In this document: one piece after another, positions 4,515-21,906 of the stretch
Position numbering within the stretch: position 1 is the stretch's first letter
How the letters are laid out: each line of letters starts with the position of its first letter
Source: an uncultured Anaerovorax sp.
GTDB taxonomy: Bacteria; Bacillota; Clostridia; Peptostreptococcales; Anaerovoracaceae
Direction of reading: 5' to 3'
DNA length: 64,000 bases
NCBI GenBank assembly: GCA_963521065.1
Contig: CAUQTI010000015.1
Coordinates: forward strand, 2,095 to 66,094
Position numbers and translations under genes: made by a program
Notes under the pieces: model-generated
Databases searched by the model: none
Told to the model about the DNA's origin: nothing
What the model saw: the letters and a program-made list of their open reading frames with translations, nothing else

Positions 4515-5507
4515 ATGTTAAATGGAAAAACTATACTGATTACTGGCGGAACCGGATCTTTTGGTAAAAATTTTATTCGCACAGCTTTGCGTGATTATAA
4601 ACCCAAGAAAATTATTGTTTACTCTAGGGATGAATTTAAACAATGGCAATTATCCGATTCACTAAAAGAATATTCAGAAGTTATGAGGTATTTTATTGGA
4701 GATGTACGTGACAAAGAGAGGATGAAAAGAGCTTTTAATGGGGTGGATTATGTTATTCATGCAGCGGCAATGAAGCAAGTGCCCGCATGTGAATATAATC
4801 CTATTGAAGCAATTAAGACAAATATAGTTGGTGCAACAAATGTAATTGATTGTGCATTAGATTGTGGTGTAAAGAAAGTTGTAGCATTATCAACAGATAA
4901 AGCAGTAAATCCTATAAATTTATATGGGGGGACAAAGTTAGTATCTGATAAATTGTTTGTCGCAGCGAATTCTTATGCTGGAATGAATGGAACAATTTTT
5001 TCTGTCGTACGATATGGAAATGTAGCTGGTAGCAGGGGATCTGTAATACCATTTTTTAAACACTTAATAGAACAAGGGAAAACGAGTTTACCAATTACCG
5101 ATTATCGGATGAGTAGATTTTGGATTAATTTGGATCAAGGTGTTGATTTAGTCATAAAGGCTCTTGATGAGGCTCAAGGTGGAGAAACGTTTATATCAAA
5201 AATTCCTTCTTTTAAAATTACTGATCTCGCGCAAGCAATGCTTCCAGGATGTAAAATGCAGGAAGTAGGTATACGTGAAGGTGAGAAATTACATGAAATT
5301 ATGGTAACAAGAGAAGATGCTCCAAATACATTGGAATTTGATAACCATTTTGTTATTTATCCTCAAATAAAGTGGGAAAATCAGGGGCAAAGAAATTGTA
5401 ATGGAGGGATTGCCGTTATAGATGAGTTTGAATATAGTTCAGGAAAGAATAATTGGTGGCTAAGTGTTGAAGACTTACAAAAAAGATTAAATTTAATGAA
5501 TTTTTAA
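4515..5507 (+). CDS. pseB: UDP-N-acetylglucosamine 4,6-dehydratase (inverting)
   Basis: ITGGTGSFG, YSRDEFKQ, HAAAMKQVPACEYNP, LSTDKAVNPINLYGGTKL, VRYGNVAGSRGSV, GIREGEKLHE. Confidence 0.93.
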   Translation: MLNGKTILITGGTGSFGKNFIRTALRDYKPKKIIVYSRDEFKQWQLSDSLKEYSEVMRYFIGDVRDKERMKRAFNGVDYVIHAAAMKQVPACEYNPIEAIKTNIVGATNVIDCALDCGVKKVVALSTDKAVNPINLYGGTKLVSDKLFVAANSYAGMNGTIFSVVRYGNVAGSRGSVIPFFKHLIEQGKTSLPITDYRMSRFWINLDQGVDLVIKALDEAQGGETFISKIPSFKITDLAQAMLPGCKMQEVGIREGEKLHEIMVTREDAPNTLEFDNHFVIYPQIKWENQGQRNCNGGIAVIDEFEYSSGKNNWWLSVEDLQKRLNLMNF

Positions 5508-5540
5508 ATGAGAGAAATGCTAAATATTGGGAGATTTTAA

Positions 5541-6254
5541 ATGGAACAAAAATCTAGTATCGCGATAATAACAGCTAGAGGTGGGAGTAAAAGAATTCCA
5601 AGAAAAAATGTAAGACTATTTTGTGGACGTCCTATAATTGAATATTCGATAAAAGCTGCATTGGAAGCAGAAATCTTTGATGAAGTCATGGTTTCTACAG
5701 ATGATGAAGAGATTTCAGAAATAGCTAAGGAAAATGGAGCGAAAGTACCTTTTTTCAGAAGTAGAGAGTTATCTGATGACTATGCAACTACAGCGCAGGT
5801 TATAGCGGAGGTGCTATCATGTTATCATGCACTTGGGAAAGACTTTGATCAAATTTGTTGCATATATCCAACGGCACCTTTTGTTTCGCCTTTGAAACTG
5901 AGAAAGGGAATGAAGTTATTAGAGAAAGGGAACGCTGTGCTACCCGTTGTGAAATATTCCTTTCCGCCTCAACGGGCGTTTATTATTAATGAGAAGGGGT
6001 GTGCACAGTATTATTGGCCGGAGAATAAGGATGCACGTTCTCAGGATTTGGATTCTTGGTATCACGACAGTGGTCAATTTTATTGCATCAGGATGGATGC
6101 TTTCAATAATAGTCATTCATTAATTCCAAGTAGAACCATACCCATGATAGTGCCTGAATTAGAGGTTCAAGATATTGATACAGAAGAAGATTGGGAAATA
6201 GCAGAATTGAAATATCAATTAATGATAAATGATATAGTGAGGAAAGATAGGTGA
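5541..6254 (+). CDS. pseF: Pseudaminic acid cytidylyltransferase
   Basis: IITARGGSKRIPRKN, VSTDDEEI, CCIYPTAPF, RSQDL..YHDSGQFY, VQDIDTEEDW. Confidence 0.9.
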   Translation: MEQKSSIAIITARGGSKRIPRKNVRLFCGRPIIEYSIKAALEAEIFDEVMVSTDDEEISEIAKENGAKVPFFRSRELSDDYATTAQVIAEVLSCYHALGKDFDQICCIYPTAPFVSPLKLRKGMKLLEKGNAVLPVVKYSFPPQRAFIINEKGCAQYYWPENKDARSQDLDSWYHDSGQFYCIRMDAFNNSHSLIPSRTIPMIVPELEVQDIDTEEDWEIAELKYQLMINDIVRKDR

Positions 6255-6260
6255 TTTCAA

Positions 6261-7454
6261 ATGGAGAAACTCGCACTATATGGAGGTAAACCAGTCCGGG
6301 ATGAATATTTGAATTATGGGAAGCAATATATTGATGAGGAAGATATTACTGCTGTTACAGAAGTTTTAAAAAGTGAATTTTTGACATGTGGGCCTAAGGT
6401 CAAAGAAATGGAGGACTCACTTTGTAATATTACAGGTGCTAACCATACAGTGGCGGTTTCTAATGGAACTGCCGCACTACACTTGGCTTGTATGGCAGCT
6501 GAAATATGCTCTGGCGATGAAGTTATTGTATCTCCTATTACATTTGCTGCATCTGCTAATAGTATTAGATATTGCGGTGGAAAGCCTGTTTTTGCTGATA
6601 TAGATTCTAAATCATGGGAAATTTCTCCACAATGTATTGAAGAAAAGATTACAACTAAAACAAAAGCCGTAATAGCAGTGGATTTTATGGGCCAAGCTGT
6701 TAAATTAAATGAGATTTCTAAAATTTGCAGAAAATATGGATTAATACTGATAGAGGATGCAGCACACTCTATTGGTACAAAGTACTGTGGTAAAATGGTA
6801 GGGGACATTGCTGATCTCACTACATTCAGTTTTCATCCAGTAAAAACAATTACTGCTGGTGAAGGTGGTGCAGTTTTAACAAATGATGAAAAAATGTATT
6901 TAAAAGTTTTAGAAGCTAGAAGTCATGGAATTACTCGTGATAAAAATCGAATGGAATATAGGCAGGAAGGTGATTGGTACTATGAACAAAAATTCTTAGG
7001 GTATAATTATCGCATCACTGATTTACAAGCAGCGCTTTGTTGTAGTCAATTAAAAAAATTAGAAATATTTGCAGAGAGACGAAAGAAATTAGTTTCAATG
7101 TACAATGAACAATTTCAGTCGATGCCAGGTGTTCAGATTCCACTAGAAATAGAAGATTCAGATACAGTTCGACATTTATACATGATTTGGATTGATTTAA
7201 AAAGGCTAACAGCTGATAGAAAAACAATATTCAATGCATTAAGAGCTGAGAACATAGGTGTAAATGTTCACTATATACCCGTTTATTGGTTGCCCGACTA
7301 TCAGAGGTTGGGTTATGAGAAAGGGTTGTGCCCTAATGCAGAGAAGTTTTATGAAGGCGCAATTACACTTCCTTTACATTATCAGATGACTGATGATGAT
7401 ATTTTTGATGTTGTTTTAGCAGTTAAAAAAGTTTTATCGTATTTTGAGAAGTAA
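6261..7454 (+). CDS. pseC: UDP-4-amino-4,6-dideoxy-N-acetyl-beta-L-altrosamine transaminase (DegT family)
   Basis: YGKQYIDEEDI, SNGTAALHLA, EDAAHSIG, FSFHPVKTITAGEGG (PLP lysine), HGITRD, GYNYRITD, VNVHYIPVY. Confidence 0.9.
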   Translation: MEKLALYGGKPVRDEYLNYGKQYIDEEDITAVTEVLKSEFLTCGPKVKEMEDSLCNITGANHTVAVSNGTAALHLACMAAEICSGDEVIVSPITFAASANSIRYCGGKPVFADIDSKSWEISPQCIEEKITTKTKAVIAVDFMGQAVKLNEISKICRKYGLILIEDAAHSIGTKYCGKMVGDIADLTTFSFHPVKTITAGEGGAVLTNDEKMYLKVLEARSHGITRDKNRMEYRQEGDWYYEQKFLGYNYRITDLQAALCCSQLKKLEIFAERRKKLVSMYNEQFQSMPGVQIPLEIEDSDTVRHLYMIWIDLKRLTADRKTIFNALRAENIGVNVHYIPVYWLPDYQRLGYEKGLCPNAEKFYEGAITLPLHYQMTDDDIFDVVLAVKKVLSYFEK

Positions 7455-7458
7455 GAAC

Positions 7459-8502
7459 ATGAGAAAATTTGAAGAAATATTAAGTAAAAAAGTTTATATA
7501 ATTGCAGAGATGTCAGCTAATCATGCTGGTATGCTTCAGCATGCGTTAGAAATTGTCAGGGCTGCAAAAGAGGCGGGTGCAGATTGTTTGAAAATACAGA
7601 CATATACTCCTGACACTTTAACGATTCCTTGTGAGAATGAGTATTTTAAAATAAAAGGTGGACTTTGGGATGGAAGTTCTTTGTATCATCTTTATGAAAA
7701 AGCATATACTCCTTGGGAATGGCATAAAGAGATTAAAATGGAGTGCGAAAAAGTTGGATTGGACTTTTTATCTACCCCTTTTGACAACACAGCGGTTGAT
7801 TTTTTGGAAGAACTTGGAGTCGAATTTTATAAAATTGCTTCTTTTGAACTAGTTGATATTCCTCTTATACGTTATGTAGCAAAAAAGAAAAAACCTATTA
7901 TAATGTCTTGCGGGATGGCTAACGAAACGGAGATTAATGAGGCAGTTGAAGCAGCTCGTAGTGAAGGCAATGACGAAATAATTTTATTAAAGTGCTGCAG
8001 TGAGTATCCTGCAAATTATGATGATATGAATTTAGCTACCATCCCGTATATGGCCGAAATTTTTGGGTTACCGATTGGTTTATCAGATCACTCTATGGGA
8101 TACATAGCAGATGTTATAGCAGTAGCGTTAGGAGCGAGGGTTATTGAGAAACATTTTTGCATAACTAGAGATATTGAAAATCCAGACAGTAAATTTTCCA
8201 TGGAATTTGATGAATTCAAAGAGATGGTTAAGCAAGTAAGAGATGCTAAAAAGATTGTTGGATTAAGAAAATGTGAGCTAAGTGAAGCAGAGAAGGCAAG
8301 TCTGATATTTAGAAAATCTATTTTTGCTGTGAAAGATATAAAAGCTGGGGACATTTTTACTGAAAAAAATATTAGAGTGATACGACCAGGTTATGGAATA
8401 AAACCTAAATATTACGAAACTATTAAGGGAATGAATGCTTCAAAAGATATAAAACGTGGTGAACCCATTTCATTTGATTTAATAAACGGTGTAATTAAAT
8501 GA
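7459..8502 (+). CDS. pseI: Pseudaminic acid synthase (NeuB family, C-terminal SAF domain)
   Basis: IIAEMSANHAG, KIQTYTPDTLT, GLWDG..LY.LYEKAYTPWEWH, KIASFE, GLSDHSMG, IEKHF, IRPGYG. The ATG at 7459 is preferred over the TTG at 7444. Confidence 0.92.
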   Translation: MRKFEEILSKKVYIIAEMSANHAGMLQHALEIVRAAKEAGADCLKIQTYTPDTLTIPCENEYFKIKGGLWDGSSLYHLYEKAYTPWEWHKEIKMECEKVGLDFLSTPFDNTAVDFLEELGVEFYKIASFELVDIPLIRYVAKKKKPIIMSCGMANETEINEAVEAARSEGNDEIILLKCCSEYPANYDDMNLATIPYMAEIFGLPIGLSDHSMGYIADVIAVALGARVIEKHFCITRDIENPDSKFSMEFDEFKEMVKQVRDAKKIVGLRKCELSEAEKASLIFRKSIFAVKDIKAGDIFTEKNIRVIRPGYGIKPKYYETIKGMNASKDIKRGEPISFDLINGVIK

Positions 8503-8526: not shown

Positions 8527-9594
8527 ATGATAGCGTTTAGGGTAGATGCTAATGATAAGGTTGGGATGGGGCATTTAATGAGAAGTGTTGCTATTGCACA
8601 GGAATTAAAAGAATTGGGTGCTCAGGTTATTTTTGTGACTTCTGATTTAAGTTCAAAAGTTTATTTGGATAGTTTCAATATTAATTCTTTACAGCTTAAT
8701 TCTAAGTGGGACAATCTAGATGGAGAAGTTGCACAAATAGTTGATGTTATTAGGGCTAAGCAAATATCATTATTGGTAATTGATAGTTACCAAGTAACGA
8801 AAAATTATTTGGATAAGATGATACAATATACAACGATTGCATATATTGATGATTTTGCAAATCAGATATGGCCTACTGATATTATAATAAATTATAATGT
8901 TTCAGCATCGGAGCAATGGTATAAGCGGAATTATAAAGAAAAAAAGATTTTAGTAGGACCTTATTATGTACCTTTAAGAAAAGAGTTTCGCAACATAAAA
9001 ATAAATCCATTAAGATTTGAAGTAAATGATATATTTATCTCAACGGGAAGTACTGATTTATATAATTTTGCAGTGCAATTTTTAAATATAGCTTTGAGAA
9101 GAGAAGATACTAGGAAACTACGGTACCATCTTATTATAGGTAAATATTTTCAAAAAATAGAACAGTTGCAACTTATTAAAGAAGAAAATGAAAATGTGTA
9201 TTTATATAAAAATGTAGAATCTATAAGTACAATTATGAGTAAATGTGACGTGGCAATTTCTGCTGCAGGGTCGACATTATATGAACTATGCGCTTGTGGT
9301 GTTCCTACAATAACCTTTAGCTTTGCAGACAATCAAATTTTGCCAAGGACTATTTTCGGGAAAAAGAATATTATGATAGATTGCGGTGATTTTAGAGAAG
9401 AACACGAGACTTGTATAGATAATATTATAGATGCTATTCATATGTTGCAATCGCTAGTATTAAGAAATACGTTGAGAGAAAAAGGTAGAAGGTTAGTTGC
9501 AGGAGGAGAGGGTGCGCTAGAATTGGCAAAACGTCTTAAAGATAAATTGGAAACGGAGGACATGAATCATGAATGCAAACATTTTGATGGATGA
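8527..9594 (+). CDS. pseG: UDP-2,4-diacetamido-2,4,6-trideoxy-beta-L-altropyranose hydrolase
   Basis: FRVDANDKVGMGHLMRS, LVIDSY, YIDD, PLRKEF, ISAAGSTLYEL..GVP, ADNQ. No fused GNAT domain is visible. Confidence 0.88.
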   Translation: MIAFRVDANDKVGMGHLMRSVAIAQELKELGAQVIFVTSDLSSKVYLDSFNINSLQLNSKWDNLDGEVAQIVDVIRAKQISLLVIDSYQVTKNYLDKMIQYTTIAYIDDFANQIWPTDIIINYNVSASEQWYKRNYKEKKILVGPYYVPLRKEFRNIKINPLRFEVNDIFISTGSTDLYNFAVQFLNIALRREDTRKLRYHLIIGKYFQKIEQLQLIKEENENVYLYKNVESISTIMSKCDVAISAAGSTLYELCACGVPTITFSFADNQILPRTIFGKKNIMIDCGDFREEHETCIDNIIDAIHMLQSLVLRNTLREKGRRLVAGGEGALELAKRLKDKLETEDMNHECKHFDG

Positions 9595-10345
9595 TATTAT
9601 AGAACAATTACAGATAGAAGCTGGAGATATTGTAATGGTTGCTTCAGATATTGTTAGATTATGGGCGGAATATAGAAGAGCTCATGGTTCGTTTTCACCA
9701 GAAGATTTAATTCGAAGCATATTAAATAAAGTTACACAAGAAGGAACCGTTTTATTTCCTACATATAGTTGGGATTTTTGTCATGGAAAAGGTTTTAATT
9801 ATTATAAAACAGCCCCTATGACAGGGGGACTTGGAAAAATTGCATTAGGAATGGAAGGGTTTATTCGAACGAGACATCCTATTTACTCTTTTGCTGCTTG
9901 GGGAAAGGATAAGGATCTATTGTATAGTATGGATAATATTAGCTCGTTTGGAGAGGATTCGCCATTTGGTTATATGCATAAAAAAAATGGTAAAAATCTT
10001 TTTATAGGAGTTCCTTTCATAAAAAGTCTTTCTTTTGTACATTATGTTGAAGAGCAAATAAACGTACCATATCGTTATCATAAAAATTTTACTGGAGAGT
10101 ATGTGGATCGGTTTGGAAGTTGTATGGAAAAAACATACTCTATGTATGTAAGGAATCTTGATATGAATATGCTACAACTGGATGCGGTTGAATCATTTAT
10201 GGAGAACATTGTACGACAAAAATTATATTTTTATAAAACAGAATTTAAGATTTTGAATTTTTTTGAAATCTATAAGATTGTAAGTGCAGATATACGAGAA
10301 AATCGAAGTAGGAATTTAGTTAGCTATATTGGACAGGAGGAATAG
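9569..10345 (+). CDS. AAC(3)-family N-acyltransferase (glycan-locus type)
   Basis: GDIVMVASD, GTVLFPTYSWDFC, RTRHPIYSFAAWG, SSFGEDSPF, FVHYVEE...VPYRYHK are Antibiotic_NAT family motifs. Confidence 0.8.
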   Translation: MNANILMDDIIEQLQIEAGDIVMVASDIVRLWAEYRRAHGSFSPEDLIRSILNKVTQEGTVLFPTYSWDFCHGKGFNYYKTAPMTGGLGKIALGMEGFIRTRHPIYSFAAWGKDKDLLYSMDNISSFGEDSPFGYMHKKNGKNLFIGVPFIKSLSFVHYVEEQINVPYRYHKNFTGEYVDRFGSCMEKTYSMYVRNLDMNMLQLDAVESFMENIVRQKLYFYKTEFKILNFFEIYKIVSADIRENRSRNLVSYIGQEE

Positions 10346-10350
10346 GTAAT

Positions 10351-11640
10351 ATGGAAGATTTTCTTGATGTTGGCCAACAAATGTATCATTTAGCAACAAG
10401 ATTATATCCAATTTGTAGAAGCATAACCGGAAATGGCGTAAGAGAAAGTTTAAGGATATTAAACGATATTTGTGAAATGGAAGTAATTGAAGTACCGTCA
10501 GGAACGGAAGTTTTTGACTGGACTGTACCTAAAGAATGGAATATAACAGAAGCATATATAGAGACATTAGCTGGAGAAAGAGTAATTGACTTTAAGCAAA
10601 GCAATTTACATGTAGTAGGATATTCGCTACCAGTTGATAAAATCATTTCAAGAGAAGAACTTTATTCTATTATTTATGTTGATGATAAACTAGTAGATGC
10701 TATACCATATGTGACATCTTACTATAAGGAACGTTATGGATTTTGTATGAGTAAGAGGCAAAAGGAGAATTTAAAAGAGGATAAGTACCATATTGTCATT
10801 AAAAGTGAAATGAAAAATGGATATCTAACATACGGAGAAATTAAAATTCCTGGAGAATCTGAGCAAGAAGTGTTTTTATCAACATATGTTTGTCACCCTT
10901 CAATGGCCAATAATGAATTATCGGGACCGTGTTTAGCTATTTACTTGGCAAAAGAATTAAAAAAGCTTATACATAGGCGTTATAGTTACAGAATTATTTT
11001 TATACCAGAAACTATTGGATCAATTACATATTTAAGCAAAAATTATTTAGAGATGAGACAGCGTACTGTAGCAGGTTTCAATATATCTTGTGTTGGTGAT
11101 GATAGAACTTATTCTTACATTGCGTCAAGATACGGTAATACGTTAGCAGATAGAGCGGCAAAAAATGTTTTAAAATTTCATTACCCTGAATATAAAGAAT
11201 ATTCTTTTTTAGAGAGAGGCTCGGATGAACGTCAATATTGTGCACCAGGTATTGATTTACCTTTATGTGGTATATGCAGATCAAAATATGGTGAATATCC
11301 AGAGTATCATACTTCAAGGGATGATCTTACGCTTATTTCCGCAGGTGGTTTGGCGGGGGCTTTTGAGGTGTATTGGAAAATACTAATGGCTTTGGAAAAC
11401 AATTTCGTTTATACGAATGTGTATTTATGCGAACCTCAACTTGGAAAGCGTGGGTTATACCCAAGTGTAAGTAAAAGAGGTATTTATGATAAGGTTAAAG
11501 CATTAACAAACTTTATTGCATATGCTGATGGAAATCAAGACTTAATACAGATGAGTGATATTATAAATGTACCTATGGATGAATTGATAGTTATAGCAGA
11601 AAAGTTGGAGCGTAACGGTATAATAAGAAAGTTGTCATGA
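10351..11640 (+). CDS. DUF4910/DUF2172 M28-like metallohydrolase with C-terminal winged HTH
   Basis: LYPICRSITGNGVRESL, VFDWTVPKEW, SNLHVVGYS, PYVTSYY, STYVCHPSMANNELSGP, PETIGSI, GSDERQYC, YPEYHTS, CEPQLGKRGLYP. Confidence 0.88.
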   Translation: MEDFLDVGQQMYHLATRLYPICRSITGNGVRESLRILNDICEMEVIEVPSGTEVFDWTVPKEWNITEAYIETLAGERVIDFKQSNLHVVGYSLPVDKIISREELYSIIYVDDKLVDAIPYVTSYYKERYGFCMSKRQKENLKEDKYHIVIKSEMKNGYLTYGEIKIPGESEQEVFLSTYVCHPSMANNELSGPCLAIYLAKELKKLIHRRYSYRIIFIPETIGSITYLSKNYLEMRQRTVAGFNISCVGDDRTYSYIASRYGNTLADRAAKNVLKFHYPEYKEYSFLERGSDERQYCAPGIDLPLCGICRSKYGEYPEYHTSRDDLTLISAGGLAGAFEVYWKILMALENNFVYTNVYLCEPQLGKRGLYPSVSKRGIYDKVKALTNFIAYADGNQDLIQMSDIINVPMDELIVIAEKLERNGIIRKLS

Positions 11641-11660: not shown

Positions 11661-12338
11661 TTGTATTATGAAGATAATATGTGGGTGATTTGTAAAGAAG
11701 GCATGGATGATTATAAAATTTTTCCAAGGGATAAAAGCAATATAGGAAGTTATATTAAAATACCTGCATTTGTTAACGGACATGCCATAAAAAAAATAGA
11801 TGACAGAGCATTTTTTAATTGTGACAAGTTAAAAATTTTAGAAATTGAAAATGGTATTATTGAAATTGGTAATAGTGTTTTTGGTAATTGTACTGCTTTA
11901 CGTATAGTAAACTTGCCGACTAGCATGAAGAAAATTCAAAAATGGGCGTTCTCATATTGCGAATCCTTGGAACAGCTCATTTGTTCTGATAATATGAGTG
12001 AGATTTGTGGATATGCATTTTATAGATGTCTCAATTTGAAAGAAATAAAGCTTAATGAAGGACTGAAAGCTATAGGGGATTACGCATTTTCAGAGTGTGA
12101 AAATATAAAGAATATAAGATTACCAAGTACACTGCGTGGAATAGGTATGAAGGCATTTGCAGGATGTAAATCATTGAATTGTGTTGAATTTCGCGAGGGA
12201 ATAAGGAATGTAGGAACTTATATGTTTCAAGAATGTAGGGACTTAGAGAAAGTACTTCTAACAAAGAGCATTAAGGGAATTGGCAGTGCTGCCTTTGATG
12301 GATGCTTAAAATTGGATAAGTTGGAAGTACGGTTATAG
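11661..12338 (+). CDS. BspA/TpLRR-type leucine-rich repeat protein (LRR_5)
   Basis: About 8 repeats of IgxxAFxxCxxLxxIxLpxxl; TTG start with AGGAGG RBS; no signal peptide. Confidence 0.85.
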   Translation: MYYEDNMWVICKEGMDDYKIFPRDKSNIGSYIKIPAFVNGHAIKKIDDRAFFNCDKLKILEIENGIIEIGNSVFGNCTALRIVNLPTSMKKIQKWAFSYCESLEQLICSDNMSEICGYAFYRCLNLKEIKLNEGLKAIGDYAFSECENIKNIRLPSTLRGIGMKAFAGCKSLNCVEFREGIRNVGTYMFQECRDLEKVLLTKSIKGIGSAAFDGCLKLDKLEVRL

Positions 12339-12361: not shown

Positions 12362-13018
12362 TTGAAGATAAAATCATTTCTAACACCATTGATAGGGTCA
12401 AATATGTATGTTATTGCAAGCAGGGAACACGGAATTATTGTTGATCCATATTTTTCGCAAGAAAGCCTTAAGTGGGTAGAAACTCAAGTTAAAAATGTTG
12501 ACTATATCTTTTTAACTCATGAGCATTTTGATCATACAAGTGGAGTTGAGTCATTTAAGAAAATATATGGGAGTCAAATTGTATGCAGTAGATTATGTGA
12601 GCAAGTCATAATAAGAGATAAAACTAGACTACATCGGGAGTGTGATATATTACTAAAAATGAGCATGAAGAAGTCTTTAAGCTTAGATCCATTAAATAAT
12701 TTTAATGCAGATATTGTATTTCAAGGAGAAACTGCATTTATTTGGGAGAATCACAATCTTATTTTCTTTGAAACCCCAGGCCATTCAATGGGGAGCAGTT
12801 GTATGTTGGTTGATAAAGCGTATTTATTTGTTGGGGATACTTTATTGAGTGATAAATTCACTATTACTAAATTTCCAGGAGGTAATGATAAGCTTTTAGA
12901 AGAGATAACAATTCCACTTTTGAAAAAATTTAGGAAAAATATCTTAGTTTTTCCGGGACATGGAATTCAATTTTATTTAAAAGACGTTATATTTAGACAA
13001 TGGAGGAATAAAAAATGA
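12362..13018 (+). CDS. MBL-fold metallo-hydrolase (glyoxalase II-like)
   Basis: THEHFDH (HxHxDH), TPGHS, FVGD, VFPGHG. Confidence 0.85.
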   Translation: MKIKSFLTPLIGSNMYVIASREHGIIVDPYFSQESLKWVETQVKNVDYIFLTHEHFDHTSGVESFKKIYGSQIVCSRLCEQVIIRDKTRLHRECDILLKMSMKKSLSLDPLNNFNADIVFQGETAFIWENHNLIFFETPGHSMGSSCMLVDKAYLFVGDTLLSDKFTITKFPGGNDKLLEEITIPLLKKFRKNILVFPGHGIQFYLKDVIFRQWRNKK

Positions 13019-13251
13019 CAAATTTAGAAAAGTACACGAATATATTTAAGGAGGCCTTTGGCATCAACGAAAGTCAAGCTGTGGCTCTGAAGTTTCAAGA
13101 TATCTCAGAATGGGACTCTGTGGGGCATATGACTTTAGTGGCGATGCTAGAAGAAGCATTTGACATTATGCTAGATACGGATGATATTATTGATTTAGCA
13201 TCATTCGATATTGGGAAAGAAATTTTAGCGAAGTATGATGTAGTGATATAG
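13015..13251 (+). CDS. Acyl carrier protein
   Basis: 78 aa acidic protein with WDSVGHM phosphopantetheine-serine motif and LEEAFDI. Confidence 0.9.
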   Translation: MTNLEKYTNIFKEAFGINESQAVALKFQDISEWDSVGHMTLVAMLEEAFDIMLDTDDIIDLASFDIGKEILAKYDVVI

Positions 13252-13259: not shown

Positions 13260-14021
13260 ATGTTAGAGGGTAAAAATGTAATAATAACTGGATCAAATCG
13301 TGGAATTGGAAATGCAATTGTTAAGACTTTTGCGAAACAGGGTGCCAATATTTGGGCTTGTGCCCGACAATATAATTCTCAATTTGAAGAAGAAATGGAA
13401 AGCCTTGCATTGGAGTGCAATACAAAGATACAACCTATCTATTTTGATTTAAATAAAAGTGAAGAGATAAGAGCTGCAGTAAAAGAAATAAGGAAAGAGA
13501 AGAAACCTATAAATACCTTAGTGACTGCAGCTGGAGTGAATTCTGAGTATCGTCGCTTTCAAATGATAACTATGGATAATTATAAACATCTTCTTCAGAG
13601 TAATTTTTTAGGGCATCTGGAGCTTACACAACTAATCTCAAGAATGATGATTCAACAGCGGAATGGGAGTATTATCCATTTATCAAGTATTGCAGGTACT
13701 GATGGTTTTTTTGCAAGCTGTGATTATGTGGCTAGTAAGGCTGCCATTATGGGAGCGACTGTACAGCAAGCAAGAGAGCTAGGAATGTTTGGAATTAGGG
13801 TCAATCATATAGCGCCTGGTATAACTGAGACTGAGATGCTAAACCAGGGGAAAAAGGAAATGTTGAACAGCATTATTCCTGCAATTATGCTTGGGCGTTT
13901 TGCCAAACCACAAGAAATTGCTAATGCAGCACTATTTCTTGCCTCTGATTTGTCAACATATATAACGGCTCAAGAAATTCGTGTAGACGGAGGATGTAAT
14001 CCACCTAGAGCAAATTGGTGA
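13260..14021 (+). CDS. SDR oxidoreductase, FabG-like
   Basis: ITGSNRGIG, catalytic YVASK, IRVNHIAPG.TET, RFAKPQEIANAALFLAS, IRVDGG. Confidence 0.88.
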   Translation: MLEGKNVIITGSNRGIGNAIVKTFAKQGANIWACARQYNSQFEEEMESLALECNTKIQPIYFDLNKSEEIRAAVKEIRKEKKPINTLVTAAGVNSEYRRFQMITMDNYKHLLQSNFLGHLELTQLISRMMIQQRNGSIIHLSSIAGTDGFFASCDYVASKAAIMGATVQQARELGMFGIRVNHIAPGITETEMLNQGKKEMLNSIIPAIMLGRFAKPQEIANAALFLASDLSTYITAQEIRVDGGCNPPRANW

Positions 14022-14847: not shown

Positions 14848-15818
14848 TTACATATTCTAAAATAAATACCAGAATTTGGTCTATGCTGGGTACGCGGAGA
14901 GTAATTGGTGTTGCGATATCAGAACTGGCAGATCAAGATGAAAAGTTTACCTTTGTTACTGCTGATGTTGGACGATATTATGCTATAAATAAGTTTAAAG
15001 AAAAACATAGTAATAAACTAATTAACGTAGGAATTGCAGAACAGAATATGATAGGTGTTGCAGCAGCAATGGCAAAAGAAGGATTTCATGTATTTACAGC
15101 AACCTATGCTACTTTCGCTACGGGAAGAGTATTGGATCAAGTGCGTGTAAACATGGGACTAATGGGACTACCCATTAAATTAATTGGTGTAAGTGCTGGA
15201 TTAGCAGAGGGAGAAATGAGCGCTACTCATATGGCATTGGAAGACATTTCGATGTTACGTTCCATTCCAAATATTATTATTGTATCCCCTGCGGATTGTA
15301 CTGAAGCAATGAAAATTTTCGAAGCTGCCAATGAGATTCAGCAACCAATGTATATTAGGCTAACAGGAGGATTAAGTTCACCGATAGTATATAAGGAAGA
15401 CTATGAATTTAAGATAGGACATTCTATCACGCTACAGAGTGGGAGTGATATTGCTATTATAGCTTCTGGTAGTATGGTAGCGCAGTCTATAAGTGTAGCT
15501 AAAGAGTTAGAAGAGCAGAAAATTAGCTGCAGTGTGATAGACATGCATACAATCTGGCCATTGGATATCGATACATTAGATTTATTGGCAGACACTCATA
15601 AAATGCTTGTAACTGTTGAAGAACATTCAGTTTATGGAGGATTAGGGGGAGCTGTTTCAGAATATTTCTCGATTAAGTCTAATCGACTGCCAATTCTTAA
15701 AATTGGTGTTAATGGTATATATCCCGATGCGGATACTTATAAAAACTTATTAGAGAAAACAGGGCTTAGTGTTAGCAAAATTACGGAGAAGATTGAAAAA
15801 AATTATAAAGAGATTTGA
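14844..15818 (+). CDS. Transketolase-like protein, C-terminal subunit (copy 1)
   Basis: NVGIAEQNMIGVAA, THMALED, SPAD, PMYIRL, DMHTIWPLD, TVEEHS.YGGLG. TTG start overlaps the previous stop. Confidence 0.9.
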   Translation: MITYSKINTRIWSMLGTRRVIGVAISELADQDEKFTFVTADVGRYYAINKFKEKHSNKLINVGIAEQNMIGVAAAMAKEGFHVFTATYATFATGRVLDQVRVNMGLMGLPIKLIGVSAGLAEGEMSATHMALEDISMLRSIPNIIIVSPADCTEAMKIFEAANEIQQPMYIRLTGGLSSPIVYKEDYEFKIGHSITLQSGSDIAIIASGSMVAQSISVAKELEEQKISCSVIDMHTIWPLDIDTLDLLADTHKMLVTVEEHSVYGGLGGAVSEYFSIKSNRLPILKIGVNGIYPDADTYKNLLEKTGLSVSKITEKIEKNYKEI

Positions 15819-15832
15819 TGGGAGCCATTGTG

Positions 15833-16642
15833 ATGAAAAGGCAAGATTTAAACTTATTAGCTAAAGAAATACGAAAAGATATACTAAATATGGCATTGGC
15901 AGCAGGTGCGCAAGGTGCTCATTTAGGAGGGGCATTATCTTGTGTTGAGATTTTAACAGCTTTATATGGTTACCAAATGAGAAAAAAGATTGAAAACCCT
16001 TATTGGGAAGAGAGAGATCGCTTGATATTTAGTAAAGGTCATGGAGCGTTGGCATATTATTCAGCTTTAGCAGAAGTTGGGTATTTTGATAAGAATGAGT
16101 TGGCCTCATATAAATCAAATGAAACCTTTTTATATGGACATCCATCTTTAAATATGGAAAGAGGGATAGAATTTTCTAGTGGAAGTCTTGGGCAAGGTGT
16201 TTCTTTAGGAGTAGGCACTGCTTTGGCACTACGTGCAAAGGAAAATCACAATTCAAGCGTCTATGTCATCGTTGGCGATGGTGAATGTAATGAAGGTTCT
16301 GTCTGGGAAGCCTTGATGTCTGCGGCTCATTTCAAGTTAAACCGACTAACGGTTATTGTTGATAAAAATGGATTGCAGTATGATGGCATGACAGAAAATG
16401 TTATGAATCTAGGAAATTTAGTTGAGAAATTTAGAAGTTTTGGTTTTTATACAAATGAAATAGATGGACACAATATAGGTTCGCTATGTGAGTCTTTAGG
16501 AGAAATTTCAGAAAAACCAAAAGCTATCATTGCTAATACGGTAAAAGGAAAAGGCATATCTTTTATGGAGGGTAACCCAAAGTGGCATAGTTCACGTTTA
16601 TCACAATCACAATATGATACAGCTATGAAAGAGTTGGGGTAG
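15833..16642 (+). CDS. Transketolase-like protein, N-terminal ThDP-binding subunit (copy 2)
   Basis: HLGGALSCVE, DRLIFSKGHG, LYGHP, GSLGQG, GDGECNEGSVWEA, IDGH, TVKGKGISFMEGNPKWH. The start could be at 15815, 15818 or 15833. Confidence 0.9.
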   Translation: MKRQDLNLLAKEIRKDILNMALAAGAQGAHLGGALSCVEILTALYGYQMRKKIENPYWEERDRLIFSKGHGALAYYSALAEVGYFDKNELASYKSNETFLYGHPSLNMERGIEFSSGSLGQGVSLGVGTALALRAKENHNSSVYVIVGDGECNEGSVWEALMSAAHFKLNRLTVIVDKNGLQYDGMTENVMNLGNLVEKFRSFGFYTNEIDGHNIGSLCESLGEISEKPKAIIANTVKGKGISFMEGNPKWHSSRLSQSQYDTAMKELG

Positions 16643-16647: not shown

Positions 16648-17610
16648 ATGGAATTTAATAGAAGAGAAATAAGGACATGGTCTATGCTGGGAAGTGCAGG
16701 AACTTTTGGACTAGCAGCATTAGAATTGGAAGATAGCAATATTGTAATGCTTACCGCAGATCTATGTAATTTTTCTGGCTTAGATCGTTTTAAAGAAAAG
16801 TATCCTCAAAGATTTTATAACTTGGGGATTGCTGAGCAGAACATGATAACTGTTGCAGGGGCTATGGCTAAAGAAGGTTTAGTGCCATTTGTTACAACAT
16901 ATGCTACGTTTGCAAGTTCTAGAGCTTGTGAACAAATTAGAGTTAATTTAGGATATATGAATCAAAATGTGAAAGTTGTAGGCTTAGCATCAGGTTTATC
17001 TGTTGGTATTTTAGGTCCCACGCATATCTCGTTAGAGGATATTTCAAATATGAGGAGCATTCCTAATATGACAGTTGTTTCACCTGCAGACTGTTCAGAA
17101 ATAATAAAGTGTGTTAAAGCATGTGCAGAGTGGGATGGGCCTGTTTATTTGAGATTAACAGGAGCGACTAATGTTCCTGTTATATATAATGAAGATTATA
17201 GTTTTGTAATTGGAAAAGCTATAAAGTTATGTGAAGGTGAAGAACTTGCAATTATAGCAACGGGGACAGTAGTATATCAAGCGAAAAAAGCAGCCGAACT
17301 TTTACAGGAGTATGGCATAGATACAATGGTAGTTAATATGCATACAATTAAACCGTTGGATAAAGAATTTCTGGATAGCATTCAAGGGATTAAGACAATT
17401 GTAACGGTTGAAGAACATGGGAAAATTGGTGGATTAGGGAGTGCTGTTGCAGAATTTTACGCTGGAAGAGAAAAAAAACCAAGACACATTATCATTGGTC
17501 TGGATGATAAATTCCCACATGCCGGCGAGTATAATTATCTATTAGAAAATTGTGGTTTAACTGCAGAACATATAGTGAAGAAGATATTACAGACAAGAGA
17601 GGAAGAGTAA
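16648..17610 (+). CDS. Transketolase-like protein, C-terminal subunit (copy 2)
   Basis: NLGIAEQNM, GPTHISLED, SPAD, GPVYLRL, NMHTIKPLD, TVEEHG.IGGLGSAVAE. Confidence 0.9.
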   Translation: MEFNRREIRTWSMLGSAGTFGLAALELEDSNIVMLTADLCNFSGLDRFKEKYPQRFYNLGIAEQNMITVAGAMAKEGLVPFVTTYATFASSRACEQIRVNLGYMNQNVKVVGLASGLSVGILGPTHISLEDISNMRSIPNMTVVSPADCSEIIKCVKACAEWDGPVYLRLTGATNVPVIYNEDYSFVIGKAIKLCEGEELAIIATGTVVYQAKKAAELLQEYGIDTMVVNMHTIKPLDKEFLDSIQGIKTIVTVEEHGKIGGLGSAVAEFYAGREKKPRHIIIGLDDKFPHAGEYNYLLENCGLTAEHIVKKILQTREEE

Positions 17611-17611: not shown

Positions 17612-19009
17612 TTGATATTTAATATTGAAAACGTGGATCGCAATCGAATCGCGGCTATAGAAGAGGGTAAAACAAGTATTACTTATGGTGAACTAAGTAA
17701 TTTTTCAATAAAAATAGCAGAGGTGCTCAAAGAAAGAAGAGTGTTAATTTTTCATTTGACAACAAATACGATTGGATCATTTGCAGGATATGTTGCTTTG
17801 TTGTCAAATTATGTGGTTCCAGCATTGATTGATTCAAAATTAGATTTAAATTTACTTCATGAACTTATAAAAAAATATAAACCTCAGTATATTTGGGCCC
17901 CTCAAATGTCGGATGCTGTTCGGGGATTAGACTGCGTATTTGAGGCTTATAAATATGGATTATATCAAACAGGATATAATAGGGGATATAATATTCACGA
18001 AGATCTTGCATTAATGCTAACTACGTCTGGAAGTACAGGGAGTCCTAAATTTGTACGACAGTCATATCAAAATATTCTTAGTAATACAAAATCTATTGTG
18101 CAATATTTAAAGATTAGAGAAGATGACCGTGCCATAACAACACTTCCTATGCATTACACCTATGGTTTATCTATCATTCAAACACATCTTTCCGTAGGTG
18201 CAAGAACGATATTTACTGAAAGAAGTTTGGTTGATAAAGAGTTCTGGAATTTGTTAAGAAATGAAGAGGCAACTACTTTTGGTGGGGTCCCTTATACATA
18301 TGAAATTCTTAAAAAATTAAAATTTTCTAGGATGGATCTACCTAGTATTCGATATATTACACAAGCTGGGGGTAAACTTGGAACGGAATTACATTATGAA
18401 TTTGCATCATGGTGTGAACAGAAAGAAATAAATTTTATTGTTATGTATGGACAGGCAGAAGCTACAGCTAGGATGAGTTACGTGCCAAGTGAAATGGCAA
18501 TAAAAAAATCCGGAAGTATTGGTATAGCTATACCGGGGGGAACATTCAAACTTATCGATTCGGATGGAAAGGAAATTACTTCCAACGAAGTGATAGGAGA
18601 AATGGTTTATACTGGACAAAATGTAACTTTAGGTTATGCAGAGTCCGGTGAAGATTTAGAAAAAGGTGATGAACGAAAGGGCATCCTATTTACTGGAGAC
18701 ATAGGAAAATTTGATGAAGACGGTTATTATTATATTGTAGGGAGAAAAAAAAGATTCTTAAAGATCTTTGGCAGCCGTGTTAATCTTGAAGAAGTAGAAA
18801 TATTGCTTAAAAATGCTGGAATGGAATCTGTTTGTGTGGGAGAGGATGACCATATGAAGATTTTTACTTTGCACGAAGATATAGTAATGGTTCGTAGTAC
18901 ATTGTCCAAACTAACAGGGATACATCCTAATGCGCTGACTGTTAGCCATATCAAAGCTATCCCTCGAAATGAAGCAGGAAAGATTTTGTATGCGGCATTG
19001 GAAAGGTGA
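17612..19009 (+). CDS. AMP-binding (adenylate-forming) acyl-CoA/acyl-ACP ligase
   Basis: TTSGSTGSPK (A3), YGQAEATAR (A5), TGDIG (A7), GRKKRFLKIFGSRV (A8), PRNEAGKI (A10). Confidence 0.9.
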   Translation: MIFNIENVDRNRIAAIEEGKTSITYGELSNFSIKIAEVLKERRVLIFHLTTNTIGSFAGYVALLSNYVVPALIDSKLDLNLLHELIKKYKPQYIWAPQMSDAVRGLDCVFEAYKYGLYQTGYNRGYNIHEDLALMLTTSGSTGSPKFVRQSYQNILSNTKSIVQYLKIREDDRAITTLPMHYTYGLSIIQTHLSVGARTIFTERSLVDKEFWNLLRNEEATTFGGVPYTYEILKKLKFSRMDLPSIRYITQAGGKLGTELHYEFASWCEQKEINFIVMYGQAEATARMSYVPSEMAIKKSGSIGIAIPGGTFKLIDSDGKEITSNEVIGEMVYTGQNVTLGYAESGEDLEKGDERKGILFTGDIGKFDEDGYYYIVGRKKRFLKIFGSRVNLEEVEILLKNAGMESVCVGEDDHMKIFTLHEDIVMVRSTLSKLTGIHPNALTVSHIKAIPRNEAGKILYAALER

Positions 19010-19015: not shown

Positions 19016-19687
19016 TTGATAACTATTATAAATTATGGGGAATATATCTTAGCAGATATTAAGAGTGATTCTATTGAAGATTGGAACTATGCACAAGCTA
19101 CTAATATAAAGGTTAATTTACCGGTAAACACGATGAATTTGGTTAATATGCAACGTAATGGATATTTATTTGTAGATCGTACATATGATGTTTCAATTAA
19201 TTTAGTAAGGTCACAAATAGATTTTGATAAACTTATACGACTAAAAGTTGTAAAAGAAAATAGGGTATCGGCACAGGTTCGCGAGATTGCATTAAAAAGC
19301 TTTCCGAATGATCGGAGATTTCATTTTTCCCCAGTTTGTAACAATAATATAGCATGTCAGGTAATTGATGACTGGCTAGAGAAATTAGAAGATATATATG
19401 TTTGCTATTATAGGGAATTACCGATAGGATTTGCTTCTTTACAATATAAGGATGATAAGCATATGTTTGTACATTTAGCAGCAGTAGATGAGAACTATAG
19501 GAGAACCGGAGCGGCACTTACACTATATTCATATCTTGCTAAATTATGCAAAGAAAATAATTGTCTTACAATGGAGGGTACAATTTCAAGTTTTAATATC
19601 CCCGTATTGAACTTATATTCCTATTTGGGAGCATCTTTTTCTAATCCAAGAGATATTTTTTTAAAGGAGGTAATGAATGAGAAATAA
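19016..19687 (+). CDS. GNAT acyltransferase, WecD-like
   Basis: HLAAVDENYRRTGAA acyl-CoA binding motif and NIPVLNLYSYLGA. SFPNDRRFH...W resembles the WecD F..SRF...W segment. Confidence 0.65.
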   Translation: MITIINYGEYILADIKSDSIEDWNYAQATNIKVNLPVNTMNLVNMQRNGYLFVDRTYDVSINLVRSQIDFDKLIRLKVVKENRVSAQVREIALKSFPNDRRFHFSPVCNNNIACQVIDDWLEKLEDIYVCYYRELPIGFASLQYKDDKHMFVHLAAVDENYRRTGAALTLYSYLAKLCKENNCLTMEGTISSFNIPVLNLYSYLGASFSNPRDIFLKEVMNEK

Positions 19688-20756
19688 TCTAGAGAAATTT
19701 CATGAAATACAACCTTATGGTCTAATGCAAACTGAAAAAGAAAAGCTTTTAGGATCTAGATTAAATGAGTTAACCTCTTGTCATTACGAGAATTGCAAGG
19801 AATACCATAAAATATTAAAAACACTGGAGGTTAATTTAGACAAAACATATGAGATTGAAGAGATTCCATTTATTCCAGTTAGACTTTTTAAGAACTATGA
19901 ATTACTTAGTGTTTCCAAAGATGACATTGCAAAGGTTATGACTTCTTCTGGAACGAGTGGACAATCAGTATCTAAAATTTATCTTAGCAAAGAGAATATC
20001 CGTTCTCAGACAAAAACATTGGCGCAAATTATATCTTCATTTATAGGTAAAAAAAGATTGCCTTTGCTTATTTTGGATACAGAACTTGTGAAAAAAGATA
20101 GGAATATGTTTTCTGCACGAGGTGCTGGAATAATCGGATTCACAACTTTTGGAAGAGATATTTGTTATGCACTAGATGAGAAAATGCAGTTAGATGTGGA
20201 TAAAGTTATAGGATTTATTGAAAAATATAAAAATGAGACAATCCTTATGTTTGGGTATACATATATGATATGGCAGTATATCGTTTTGGAATTGGAGAGA
20301 TTAGGGATCTCATTAAAAACAAAAGGTATTCTATTTCACATTGGAGGATGGAAAAAATTAAAAGATCAAGCAGTAGATACTTTGGCGTATAACAGACGTG
20401 TATGTGGTTGTTTTGGTGATGTTCAAGTATATAATTATTATGGTATGGCAGAGCAATTAGGCTCTGTTTTTGTTGAATGTGAACATGGGCATATGCATTG
20501 TTCAAATTATTCAGACATTATCATTCGAAGAGCGAAAGACTTTAGCGTAGCTGATATAAAAGAACGAGGATTAATTGAGTTGGTTTCAGCTTTGCCTATA
20601 AGTTATCCGGGACATGCTATACTCACAGAAGACGAAGGAGAAATACTAGGAATTGATAATTGTCCCTGCGGAAGAAAAGGAAAGTATTTTAAAATATATG
20701 GACGAGTTAAAGGTGCAGAAATAAGGGGGTGTAGTGATACACATGAAAGACGTTGA
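19677..20756 (+). CDS. Acyl-protein synthetase (LuxE family)
   Basis: PFIPVRLFK, MTSSGTSG, GGWKK, YYGMAEQ, SYPGHAILTEDEG, CPCGRKG, C-terminal GRV...EIRGCSD. Confidence 0.88.
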   Translation: MRNNLEKFHEIQPYGLMQTEKEKLLGSRLNELTSCHYENCKEYHKILKTLEVNLDKTYEIEEIPFIPVRLFKNYELLSVSKDDIAKVMTSSGTSGQSVSKIYLSKENIRSQTKTLAQIISSFIGKKRLPLLILDTELVKKDRNMFSARGAGIIGFTTFGRDICYALDEKMQLDVDKVIGFIEKYKNETILMFGYTYMIWQYIVLELERLGISLKTKGILFHIGGWKKLKDQAVDTLAYNRRVCGCFGDVQVYNYYGMAEQLGSVFVECEHGHMHCSNYSDIIIRRAKDFSVADIKERGLIELVSALPISYPGHAILTEDEGEILGIDNCPCGRKGKYFKIYGRVKGAEIRGCSDTHERR

Positions 20757-21906
20757 ATTTTTGGTAGGAAAAGAAGCTCCTTTAGATAAAACAGTATTAC
20801 CCCCATATAGCGATATCGTATGCAACTTTTTACAAGAGTTATCTGGTCGGTTAATAAGAGAGGCAAAGCTTTATCCAGATGTACTTTCTTTTGCGTATTG
20901 GTGTAGAAAAGCTAATTTATTAAAATTGAAAGAAAGTGCATCATATGGCCGATTGGGACGTGGAATGGTATTTCATATTACTCCATCCAATGTTCCGGTA
21001 AATTTTGCATTCTCATTAGCATTTTCATTATTAGCCGGAAATAACAATATTGTCAGAGTTAGCAGCAAAAAATTTCCTCAGGTAGATTTGATATGCAGAG
21101 TGATGAATGAAGTTCTTTTAAATCATCCTAATTTAGCGAATAAAGTAAGGATAATTCGGTATGGGCATAATCAAGAAGTAACGGCTGCACTTTCCATGCA
21201 GTCGGATGTTCGTATGGTTTGGGGCGGAGACGAAACAGTAAGTTTATTAAAGATGGAAAAGACAAAACCACAATGCTTAGATATATGTTTTGTTGATCGC
21301 TATTCAGTAGCAATGATTAGTGGGAAAGAGATACTATCATTAAGTGATAGTGAACTTATTCGATTGGCAGAGCAATTTTATAATGATACTTACTTAGTTG
21401 ATCAAAATGCGTGTTCCTCACCACAACTAGTTTTGTGGTATGAAGATGATTTATTTGGGCGTGAGCGATTTTGGAATGCAGTATATGATTGTGCAAAAAA
21501 AAGATACACATTGCAAGAAGCTGTATGTGTAGATAAATATACCAGGCTGTGTGAGAATGCGATAGATGGGATAGGAATAAAGACTAGTCAAAGGTTTGGG
21601 AATTTGTTATATCGCATGGATTTAGAAACTATAAATCTATCGACACAACAATTACGAGGTGTATGCGGAATGTTTTATGAATACTCACTGAATGATTGGA
21701 GTGAATTAAAAAAGTTTGTTTCTAATAAATATCAAACCGTTACATGCTTTGGGATAAATCGTCAGTTACTTAGAGAATTTGTAATAAATAATGGGCTCAA
21801 TGGAATTGATCGAATAGTTCCAATTGGAAAAGCAGTAGATATTGGTATTATCTGGGACGGATACGATTTGATTGGCATGTTGTCGCGCGTGGTAGCATTA
21901 GTATAA
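20734..21906 (+). CDS. Acyl-CoA/acyl-protein reductase (LuxC family)
   Basis: GRGMVFHITPSNVPVNF, LLAGNNNIVRVSS, WGGDETV, DRYS, DQNACSSPQ (catalytic Cys), YQT, GIDRIVPIG, WDG. Confidence 0.88.
   Translation: MIHMKDVEFLVGKEAPLDKTVLPPYSDIVCNFLQELSGRLIREAKLYPDVLSFAYWCRKANLLKLKESASYGRLGRGMVFHITPSNVPVNFAFSLAFSLLAGNNNIVRVSSKKFPQVDLICRVMNEVLLNHPNLANKVRIIRYGHNQEVTAALSMQSDVRMVWGGDETVSLLKMEKTKPQCLDICFVDRYSVAMISGKEILSLSDSELIRLAEQFYNDTYLVDQNACSSPQLVLWYEDDLFGRERFWNAVYDCAKKRYTLQEAVCVDKYTRLCENAIDGIGIKTSQRFGNLLYRMDLETINLSTQQLRGVCGMFYEYSLNDWSELKKFVSNKYQTVTCFGINRQLLREFVINNGLNGIDRIVPIGKAVDIGIIWDGYDLIGMLSRVVALV

Follow-up and report, generated by a model that had tools for sequence, protein, structure and literature searches.

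We analyzed a 64,000-nucleotide stretch (the window) of contig CAUQTI010000015.1 (C15) from an uncultured Anaerovorax sp. (assembly GCA_963521065.1, genome G000), in which window position 1 corresponds to C15:2095. At 4515..21906 it holds 19 open reading frames (ORFs), all on the plus strand and spaced by -26 to +33 bases in a coordinate check of the ORF list. The pseudaminic acid (Pse) genes pseB-F-C-I-G come first, and 14 tightly packed genes follow, encoding an AAC(3)-fold acyltransferase, a DUF4910 hydrolase, a leucine-rich repeat (LRR) protein, a metallo-beta-lactamase (MBL)-fold hydrolase, an acyl carrier protein (ACP), a short-chain dehydrogenase/reductase (SDR), two split transketolases, an adenylating ligase, a WecD-like GNAT, LuxE, and LuxC (Table 1). 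These coordinates and families are as given in a preliminary description of this DNA, and PseB, PseF, PseC, PseI, and PseG all score above their NCBIfam cut-offs. The locus is made up of a known Pse pathway, an N5 acyl swap of known type, a carrier-protein cassette already noted in print, and an unusual double transketolase. From gene content and sequence comparison we propose, with a probability of about 0.5, that it is a cell-surface polysaccharide locus with a likely complete Pse pathway, whose ACP, SDR, transketolase, ligase, LuxE, and LuxC would build a polyhydroxylated acyl group that replaces the N5 acetyl of Pse.

The preliminary description found no PseH, either free or fused to PseG. 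This is correct inside the window but not for the locus, whose first gene encodes a free PseH-type GNAT that ends 1343 bases ahead of the window start and 5.9 kb ahead of pseB. Its sole NCBIfam match is TIGR03585 (PseH), at 38 bits, below the cut-off of 93. The genome-wide pseH search suggested earlier gave eight weak matches to TIGR03585, none of them (0/8) above cut-off. One of these is the gene that heads the locus; another, a GNAT on contig C2, reaches 44.5 bits from model positions 51-155 alone, matches six other families, and lies in an unrelated context. Across 127 aa, the upstream GNAT shares 33% identity with the domain at the C terminus of a PseG fusion (P0122), a domain that itself escapes TIGR03585 (E = 1e-6), and it shares 34% identity with the GNAT encoded immediately after pseI in locus L027. 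It is also the top genome match of a profile built from 46 locus GNATs. PseH-type GNATs are present in 36 of 37 other loci that combine pse genes with the carrier module, and one heads this locus; the proposal that the module replaces an absent PseH is not supported. We also rejected the AAC(3)-fold enzyme as a PseH substitute, because AAC(3) occurs beside full pseH. By sequence, the Pse pathway is likely complete, with its PseH-type gene just outside the window, and the claim of a Pse pathway without PseH does not hold up.

By analogy with Campylobacter jejuni Cj1295, the DUF4910 and AAC(3)-fold proteins are likely a pair that deacetylates and re-acylates N5, DUF4910 as the deacetylase and the AAC(3)-fold enzyme as the re-acylating transferase. 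We take Cj1295 to be a DUF4910 member from the family description in PMC3068675 and general knowledge of the family, a placement by description rather than by computed identity. As in the Cj1295-type pair, an aminopeptidase-like hydrolase here has an AAC(3)-type transferase as its neighbor among Pse genes, and the DUF4910 motifs are kept in 11 relatives. Cj1295 is needed for 5-N-(di-O-methylglyceroyl)-Pse, with cleavage of the C5 acetamido group proposed by the authors (available text of PMC3068675), and correlates with pse genes (available text of PMC13130089). The pair is independent of the carrier module: it occurs with its own FkbH(-ACP) donor in Aeromonas loci L055 and L079 and in genome G495, and with pseH or pse genes and no ACP in two plasmids and genome G683, while DUF4910 is paired with a formyltransferase in Pse loci L047, L106, and L107. 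The block is two separable modules, and the earlier picture of all 14 genes as one assembly line cannot be kept. A search of the genome for FkbH (TIGR01686) gave no match, with control searches equally silent; because no FkbH was found, the adjacent ACP would be the only carrier in the locus.

Using the window ACP as probe, we confirmed at least 134 ACP loci and counted genes in the best 80, many of which are cut by contig ends. ACP, ligase, and LuxE occur in 76 of the 80 (core loci), LuxC in 73, and SDR in 68. At least two pse genes are present in 37 of the 76 core loci, and in 55 of the 76, pse genes or a gene for a DegT-family aminotransferase lie no more than 10 kb away; among the rest, all six genomes tested carry wecE elsewhere. 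The expectation that the carrier-protein genes form a genuine cassette, one that recurs with amino-sugar loci, is supported. Within the same cassette lie a split transketolase (13/80), a NeuB-like aldolase (12/80), or an acetolactate synthase (ALS)-like thiamine diphosphate (ThDP) enzyme (8/80), and the latter two would fit a pathway that branches at an aldehyde. The combination of Pse genes, transketolase, and Lux module recurs in L027, L028, and G495; the last, from another class, has nearly the parts list of the window with a single transketolase pair, its genes being split between two contig pieces that have a repeated element at their flanks. The MBL-fold hydrolase also recurs in the module, with a thioesterase-domain gene in L096, and is likely an editing thioesterase.

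Several variants of the cassette were seen along the way. The NeuB-like gene (about 32-36% identical to PseI) lies within it in L005, L007, L011, L019, L022, L023, L027, L030, L031, and L035, often with the ALS-like enzyme and often adjoining the ACP; it is likely misannotated as a sialic acid synthase and is a candidate phosphoenolpyruvate-dependent chain extender. Two LuxE/LuxC sets occur in L026, L027, L028, L097, and L099, where the transketolase H100 equivalent is Tyr or Glu, a pattern that suggests a second reduction round and a different donor. LuxE and LuxC are fused in L096, L097, and L099.

The core cassette occurs across many phyla beside genes for Pse and other amino sugars, and it is annotated as fatty acid synthesis. 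In the available part of PMC7874193, genes for ACP, 3-oxoacyl-ACP reductase, AMP-dependent synthetase, LuxE, and LuxC lie beside pse genes in 98 Aeromonas strains and are read as fatty acid genes, and the available part of PMC4875605 places the same five-gene core in enterobacterial flagellin glycosylation islands; the core beside pse genes was thus already in print, and the label of a new system is not supported. As far as the accessible portions of these papers go, published mutants spared the core genes or deleted them along with pse genes, and we found no biochemical test of the core cassette in the literature. We found no description of a transketolase-bearing cassette in a search of mainly open-access literature; PMC13317340, the available part of PMC13663882, and bioRxiv 2022.03.25.485807 hold nothing on this version.

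The carrier enzymes appear intact. The genome encodes one PF01648 phosphopantetheinyl transferase, and in alignment to the solved complex LuxE Cys352 and LuxC Cys227 coincide with its catalytic cysteines. Scores stay below the cut-offs of the bioluminescence LuxCE equivalogs (69/550 and 38/750 bits), and the flanking proteins include no luciferase genes and give no luxAB/luxD context. The analogy to Vibrio cholerae tetronate drawn earlier stands: a LuxE domain is present in RfbN, and malate is given as the origin of tetronate (available parts of PMC4772473 and PMC10746206). In Aeromonas strains that bear the core, Pse occurs as derivatives of 376 and 422 Da (available parts of bioRxiv 2024.05.20.594992 and 2024.06.23.600306). 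The 376.14-Da Pse matches replacement of acetyl by dihydroxybutyryl (376.148, computed), a fit that is not unique since O-methylglyceroyl is isomeric, and 422.154, computed, corresponds to dihydroxybutyryl-Pse plus glyceroyl, with isomers fitting equally. Separately, the 102-Da moiety of the Aeromonas piscicola AH-3 flagellin glycan, as reported in the available parts of PMC7874193 and bioRxiv 2024.05.20.594992, has the mass of a dihydroxybutyryl residue (C4H6O3), which also fits the 376-Da sugar. A lactate dehydrogenase (LDH)-fold enzyme with Arg at the malate-specificity position adjoins the module in three loci (L004:13842-14750, L007:15219-16193, and L124:17861-18805), in each case with LDH as its best family match. 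Arg at this position marks malate dehydrogenases, and these enzymes could possibly supply the starter unit. Treponema denticola flagellin Pse carries 2-methoxy-4,5,6-trihydroxyhexanoyl, the skeleton predicted for malate plus C2 (available part of PMC13439194). We rejected T. denticola as a precedent because an RNA-seq gene table for the strain lists one transketolase and, by annotation, no LuxE, acyl-protein synthetase, acyl coenzyme A (acyl-CoA) reductase, or extra ACP (PMC12070737).

Two tandem transketolase pairs were seen in none of 29 other transketolase-bearing loci (0/29); L087 has a distant second pair on the other strand. Pairs 1 and 2 of the window are 51% and 44% identical in their N and C halves, and a tree of the N halves was unresolved; in a quick tree of the C halves they fall together in a clade of nine rows without being sisters, and a recent duplication is not supported. 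Residue numbers follow Escherichia coli, with the lost residues other than D469 taken to bind phosphate. Both N halves keep H26, H66, H100, H261, and the Mg site. Both C halves keep E411 and H473 and lack H461, D469, and R520, which are replaced by S, M, and G in pair 1 and by A, L, and A in pair 2 (the register at S385 is ambiguous). Among 24 C-half rows from modules, E411 and H473 are kept in all 24, H461, D469, and R520 in none, and R358 in 14, while the housekeeping split transketolase of the genome (on contig C4) keeps all these residues. In E. coli, changes at D469 favor aliphatic aldehydes, and H100 binds the donor hydroxyl (available part of bioRxiv 719906). Because residues for the acceptor phosphate and 2-hydroxyl are lost, the window transketolases are unlikely to be pentose phosphate enzymes; the residue pattern fits C2 ketol addition to an aldehyde that carries neither a phosphate nor a 2-hydroxyl, for example ACP-bound malate semialdehyde. 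The preliminary description instead had a sugar-derived acyl group loaded by transketolase in the manner of quinocarcin. This does not agree with the scarcity of the enzyme, which most cassettes lack, or with the absence of a lipoyl/E2 gene from the 14 genes and from all 31 proteins scanned.

In the scheme that we propose, with the step order of V. cholerae tetronate synthesis as background, PseB and PseC would form a UDP-4-amino sugar that the short PseH acetylates at the future N7. The ligase would load a dicarboxylic acid, most likely malate, onto Ser35 of the ACP, LuxE and LuxC would convert the free carboxyl to an aldehyde, a transketolase would add a C2 ketol unit to this nonphosphorylated aldehyde lacking a 2-hydroxyl, and the SDR would reduce the resulting ketone. 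One round would give a C6 chain of the 3-deoxy-hexonoyl type and a Pse residue of ∼436.17 Da (434.15 Da with the ketone left in place); from the second transketolase would come either further growth or branching of the chain (∼496.19 Da for C8) or a separate product, and the MBL-fold hydrolase would clear mis-loaded carrier. At some point in this order, DUF4910 would strip acetyl from N5 and the new acyl would be put on by the AAC(3)-fold enzyme; the WecD-like GNAT may also hand this acyl to a 4-amino sugar nucleotide. PseG, PseI, and PseF would finish CMP-Pse, and the two TIGR04396-like proteins would transfer it into a Wzm/Wzt-exported glycan containing galactofuranose.

A number of observations weigh against this scheme. 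The upstream GNAT is far under the PseH cut-off, and the 46-GNAT profile that ranks it first is partly circular, having been seeded from its own BLAST matches. Of the 13 loci with a transketolase among the 80, just 2 are Pse loci. The residue losses recur in five further rows, two of them without a nearby ACP (L093 and L094), and because the pattern also occurs in rows without ACP, it marks a subfamily and is no proof of carrier use. The closest relatives of the AAC(3)-fold enzyme (48%, 39%, and 34% identical) are in Pse loci in which no ACP was seen, so it may use acyl-CoA, and one close relative comes from a genome without LuxE. The window locus has no malate-type dehydrogenase; the Aeromonas mass fits have isomeric alternatives; and the sole known Pse with the predicted C6 skeleton, that of T. 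denticola, comes from a strain without the annotated module. Finally, the WecD-like GNAT is found in none of the 37 other Pse-plus-module loci (0/37), and the genome has a true wecE, with rmlA and rmlB, at an unlinked site on contig C3 (615 bits versus a cut-off of 435).

These last two points open the most serious alternative, which we regard as possible but tentative: the carrier module would serve another sugar, with the GNAT acylating dTDP-4-amino-4,6-dideoxygalactose (dTDP-Fuc4N) from the C3 genes, while Pse is tailored by AAC(3) and DUF4910 from a CoA donor. The GNAT scores only 22.6 bits against WecD (NF008212, cut-off 219), and a profile of the module GNAT family aligns over its full length to WecD (PDB 2fs5, E = 1e-4). 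A profile built from module GNATs without that of the window has the latter as its only match in the genome (62 bits). The wecE gene is present in just 34 of 398 other genomes of the class and in 0 of 17 of the same order; it is found in all four strong class matches of the GNAT family (one genus) and, for GNAT modules without wecE within 10 kb, elsewhere in 6 of 6 genomes tested, compared with 1 of 4 control module genomes lacking this GNAT. Window and C3 loci both have 33% GC in a 41% genome, and in the three in-trans neighborhoods read (L120, L121, and L122) wecE is a lone gene far from glycan clusters, with the WecD-like GNAT in a carrier module elsewhere in the same genome. Against this, the window GNAT falls in a sister subfamily with 17 other clusters that scores 38 to 65 bits on the wecE-tracking profile, five of the six in-trans genomes appear to be close kin, and this GNAT family is missing from 30 of the 34 wecE genomes. 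The single close relative of the window GNAT that was mapped, in G986 (found in 1 of 261 genomes), is 40% identical and sits in a module with a 68% identical LuxE, the same ligase-GNAT-LuxE-LuxC order, and one transketolase pair, in a genome with a DesI-like aminotransferase and neither wecE nor pseI; a more distant relative in G138 lies by a PseC-like aminotransferase, again without wecE. Moreover, C3 has its own GNAT, and no WecF-family transferase was found. Viral contigs and plasmids yielded no relative of the window GNAT.

Two neighborhoods bear description in their own right. The G986 module (L124, on contig C91) is the closest whole module to that of the window and adjoins genes for an NDP-hexose 2,3-dehydratase, a Gfo/Idh/MocA reductase, and the DesI-like aminotransferase; it likely makes a trideoxy amino sugar in an ABC-exported glycan. 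The C3 locus (L108, G000:C3:21280-40715) is a second low-GC glycan locus with rmlA, rmlB, wecE, and Wzx/Wzy-type genes, plus a set comprising LicD, a GNAT, a class V aminotransferase, and a cytidylyltransferase-oxidoreductase that looks like amino-alcohol phosphate decoration.

The acceptor of the carrier-built acyl appears flexible; we rank Pse N5, at even odds, over Fuc4N, for which the case is tentative, and Fuc4N over Pse N7, which is unlikely. The first two can hold together, and it remains plausible, in the face of a serious rival, that the acyl group ends on a nonulosonic acid as first suggested. More speculatively, a single carrier line could form a malyl-ACP aldehyde via LuxE/LuxC and extend it by two transketolases to a C6-C8 polyol acyl new to any sugar, feeding both the AAC(3)-fold enzyme (Pse N5) and the WecD-like GNAT (dTDP-Fuc4N), as one member of a combinatorial family whose lines pass the same aldehyde to transketolase, NeuB-like, or ALS-like enzymes.

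An amended form of the earlier model, in which the WecD-like GNAT puts the carrier-built acyl on the PseC product (Pse N7), replacing or competing with the short PseH, seems improbable. GNAT and pseC share one operon, in Aeromonas-type loci it is PseH, the N7 transferase, that adjoins the ACP, members of the GNAT family seem adapted to various 4-amino sugars, and the upstream PseH-type gene scores weakly; however, that gene is present in the locus, Pse modules elsewhere use a long PseH and never this GNAT type, and most mapped GNAT relatives go with dTDP-linked pathways. Least likely of all, transketolases that branch a nucleotide 4-keto sugar or give a C2 starter to the carrier, with the Lux module making only C4 dihydroxybutyryl, would account for the residue losses without ACP (L093 and L094, one by a sugar dehydratase) and for the 67 of 80 cores without transketolase, but in those module loci whose genes were read one by one the pair usually adjoins SDR, ACP, ligase, or LuxE, the block has no lipoyl/E2 gene of the quinocarcin type, and there is no obvious set of reductase and transferase for making a branched sugar.

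Table 1. Genes of the Pse locus and its surroundings (window positions unless prefixed C15).
Feature	Position	Strand	Evidence or remark
PseH-type (RimJ-type) GNAT, free, 158 aa	C15:276-752	+	First gene of locus; wzm and wzt next
wzm	C15:813-1592		Outside window, upstream of wzt
wzt 3' end (ABC export ATPase)	1..244	+	Family matches
Membrane-anchored protein	565..1689	+	One hydrophobic stretch; no family match
TIGR04396-like surface-carbohydrate protein	1712..3088	+	121 bits vs cut-off 125; Atlas clusters bear same name
Second TIGR04396-like protein	3097..4494	+	38% identity to the first
PseB	4515..5507	+	TIGR03589, 525 bits vs cut-off 408
PseF	5541..6254	+	TIGR03584, 291 bits vs cut-off 206
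PseC	6261..7454	+	TIGR03588, 475 bits vs cut-off 424
PseI	7444..8502	+	TIGR03586, 474 bits vs cut-off 340
PseG, unfused, 355 aa	8527..9594	+	TIGR03590, 203 bits vs cut-off 154
AAC(3)-fold acyltransferase	9569..10345	+	PF02522; RxRHP and HxxE motifs common to relatives in Pse loci
DUF4910 peptidase-fold hydrolase	10351..11640	+	PF16254/PF09940/PF16221; PDB 3k9t, E 5e-107
BspA-type LRR protein (LRR_5)	11661..12338	+	No hydrophobic leader
MBL-fold hydrolase	12362..13018	+	PF00753 and GloB-like matches
ACP, WDSVGH type, Ser35	13015..13251	+	Weak match, E 3e-4
FabG-like SDR	13260..14021	+	SDR family matches
Split transketolase pair 1, N half (TK-N) and C half (TK-C)	TK-N 14038-14847, TK-C 14844-15818	+	R358 equivalent kept; H461/D469/R520 absent
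Split transketolase pair 2	TK-N 15815-16642, TK-C 16648-17610	+	R358, H461, D469, R520 absent
Adenylating ligase (AMP-binding)	17612..19009	+	PF00501
WecD-like GNAT, distinct ∼220-aa subfamily	19016..19687	+	Weak WecD match
LuxE-like acyl-protein synthetase	19677..20756	+	Family match and alignment; Cys352 kept
LuxC-like reductase	20734..21906	+	Family match and alignment; Cys227 kept
MBOAT O-acyltransferase, SGNH-like protein, UDP-galactopyranose mutase, DUF4422 protein	21921..26448	+	Rest of locus

The wider locus was likely acquired horizontally: the block is a 33% GC island in a 41% GC genome, and its LuxE was not found in 100 relatives. LuxE is present in 6 of 398 genomes of the class, 2 of the 6 in a nonglycan context, and we rejected vertical inheritance of the block on this distribution. 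In two class genomes (L101 and L102), ACP-ligase-LuxE-LuxC occurs with a more distant ACP in nonglycan contexts. The first TIGR04396-like protein is likely a nonulosonate glycosyltransferase, judging by its family. The LRR protein has a relative in just 1 of the 80 ACP loci. Downstream, two MBOAT plus SGNH-like pairs lie at 21921-30524 (55% and 28% identity between pairs), one low in GC and within the island, the other at genome GC, past a minus-strand patatin gene. Contig C15 begins in a repeated end that it shares with four contigs, and a link to any one neighboring contig was dropped for this reason. A flagellin island was rejected because the flagellin gene, on contig C8, has no glycan genes in its neighborhood, and a promoter scan gave counts at chance level.

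If true, the model would explain how bacteria place polyhydroxy acyl groups on surface sugars and would provide testable structures for two Aeromonas flagellin sugars, dihydroxybutyryl-Pse at 376 Da and the same plus glyceroyl at 422 Da (isomers being possible). It would also point to a natural transketolase subfamily for nonphosphorylated aldehydes, an enzyme-engineering goal.

Among known systems, the closest solved transketolase structures are the split enzymes of Carboxydothermus hydrogenoformans (PDB 6yaj/6yak; E = 1e-58 and 1e-66), with ThDP and catalytic residues kept; the window pairs differ in having lost the acceptor phosphate and 2-hydroxyl residues. The quinocarcin QncN/QncL system presumably works with a lipoyl-bearing E2-like partner, which the 14 block genes do not include. 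WecD/WecE is matched by a true wecE, but on another contig, and the window GNAT sits inside a carrier cassette. Like C. jejuni Cj1295/Cj1296-7, as described in the available part of PMC3068675, the locus has an aminopeptidase-like protein of equal size adjoining an N-acetyltransferase among Pse genes; the Campylobacter N5 group is di-O-methylglyceroyl, whereas no FkbH was found in the window genome (controls silent). V. cholerae O1 rfbK-O/wbeK-O, compared by description, whose product is 3-deoxy-L-glycero-tetronate, shares a LuxE-domain protein and, under the proposed scheme, a malate-derived N-acyl on an amino sugar. The ACP, ligase, and reductase roles of its tetronate genes are said to go back to Morona in 1995, and its reductase is presumably an iron alcohol dehydrogenase, in contrast to the SDR here; the window locus further differs in its separate LuxE and LuxC, its added transketolases, and its other sugar and transferases. 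The closest match overall is the Aeromonas group II flagellin glycosylation island (PMC7874193, available part), with the same five genes beside pse genes and proteins 27-54% identical. Aeromonas loci L055 and L079 have AAC(3) and DUF4910 as well. The Aeromonas and enterobacterial papers, in their available parts, read this core as fatty acid or liposugar genes (PMC7874193, PMC4875605). Relative to the Aeromonas core, no FkbH was found (controls silent), and the window locus adds two split transketolases and an MBL-fold hydrolase, has a WecD-like GNAT where the Aeromonas core has the long PseH, and is associated with a Wzm/Wzt glycan rather than with flagellin.

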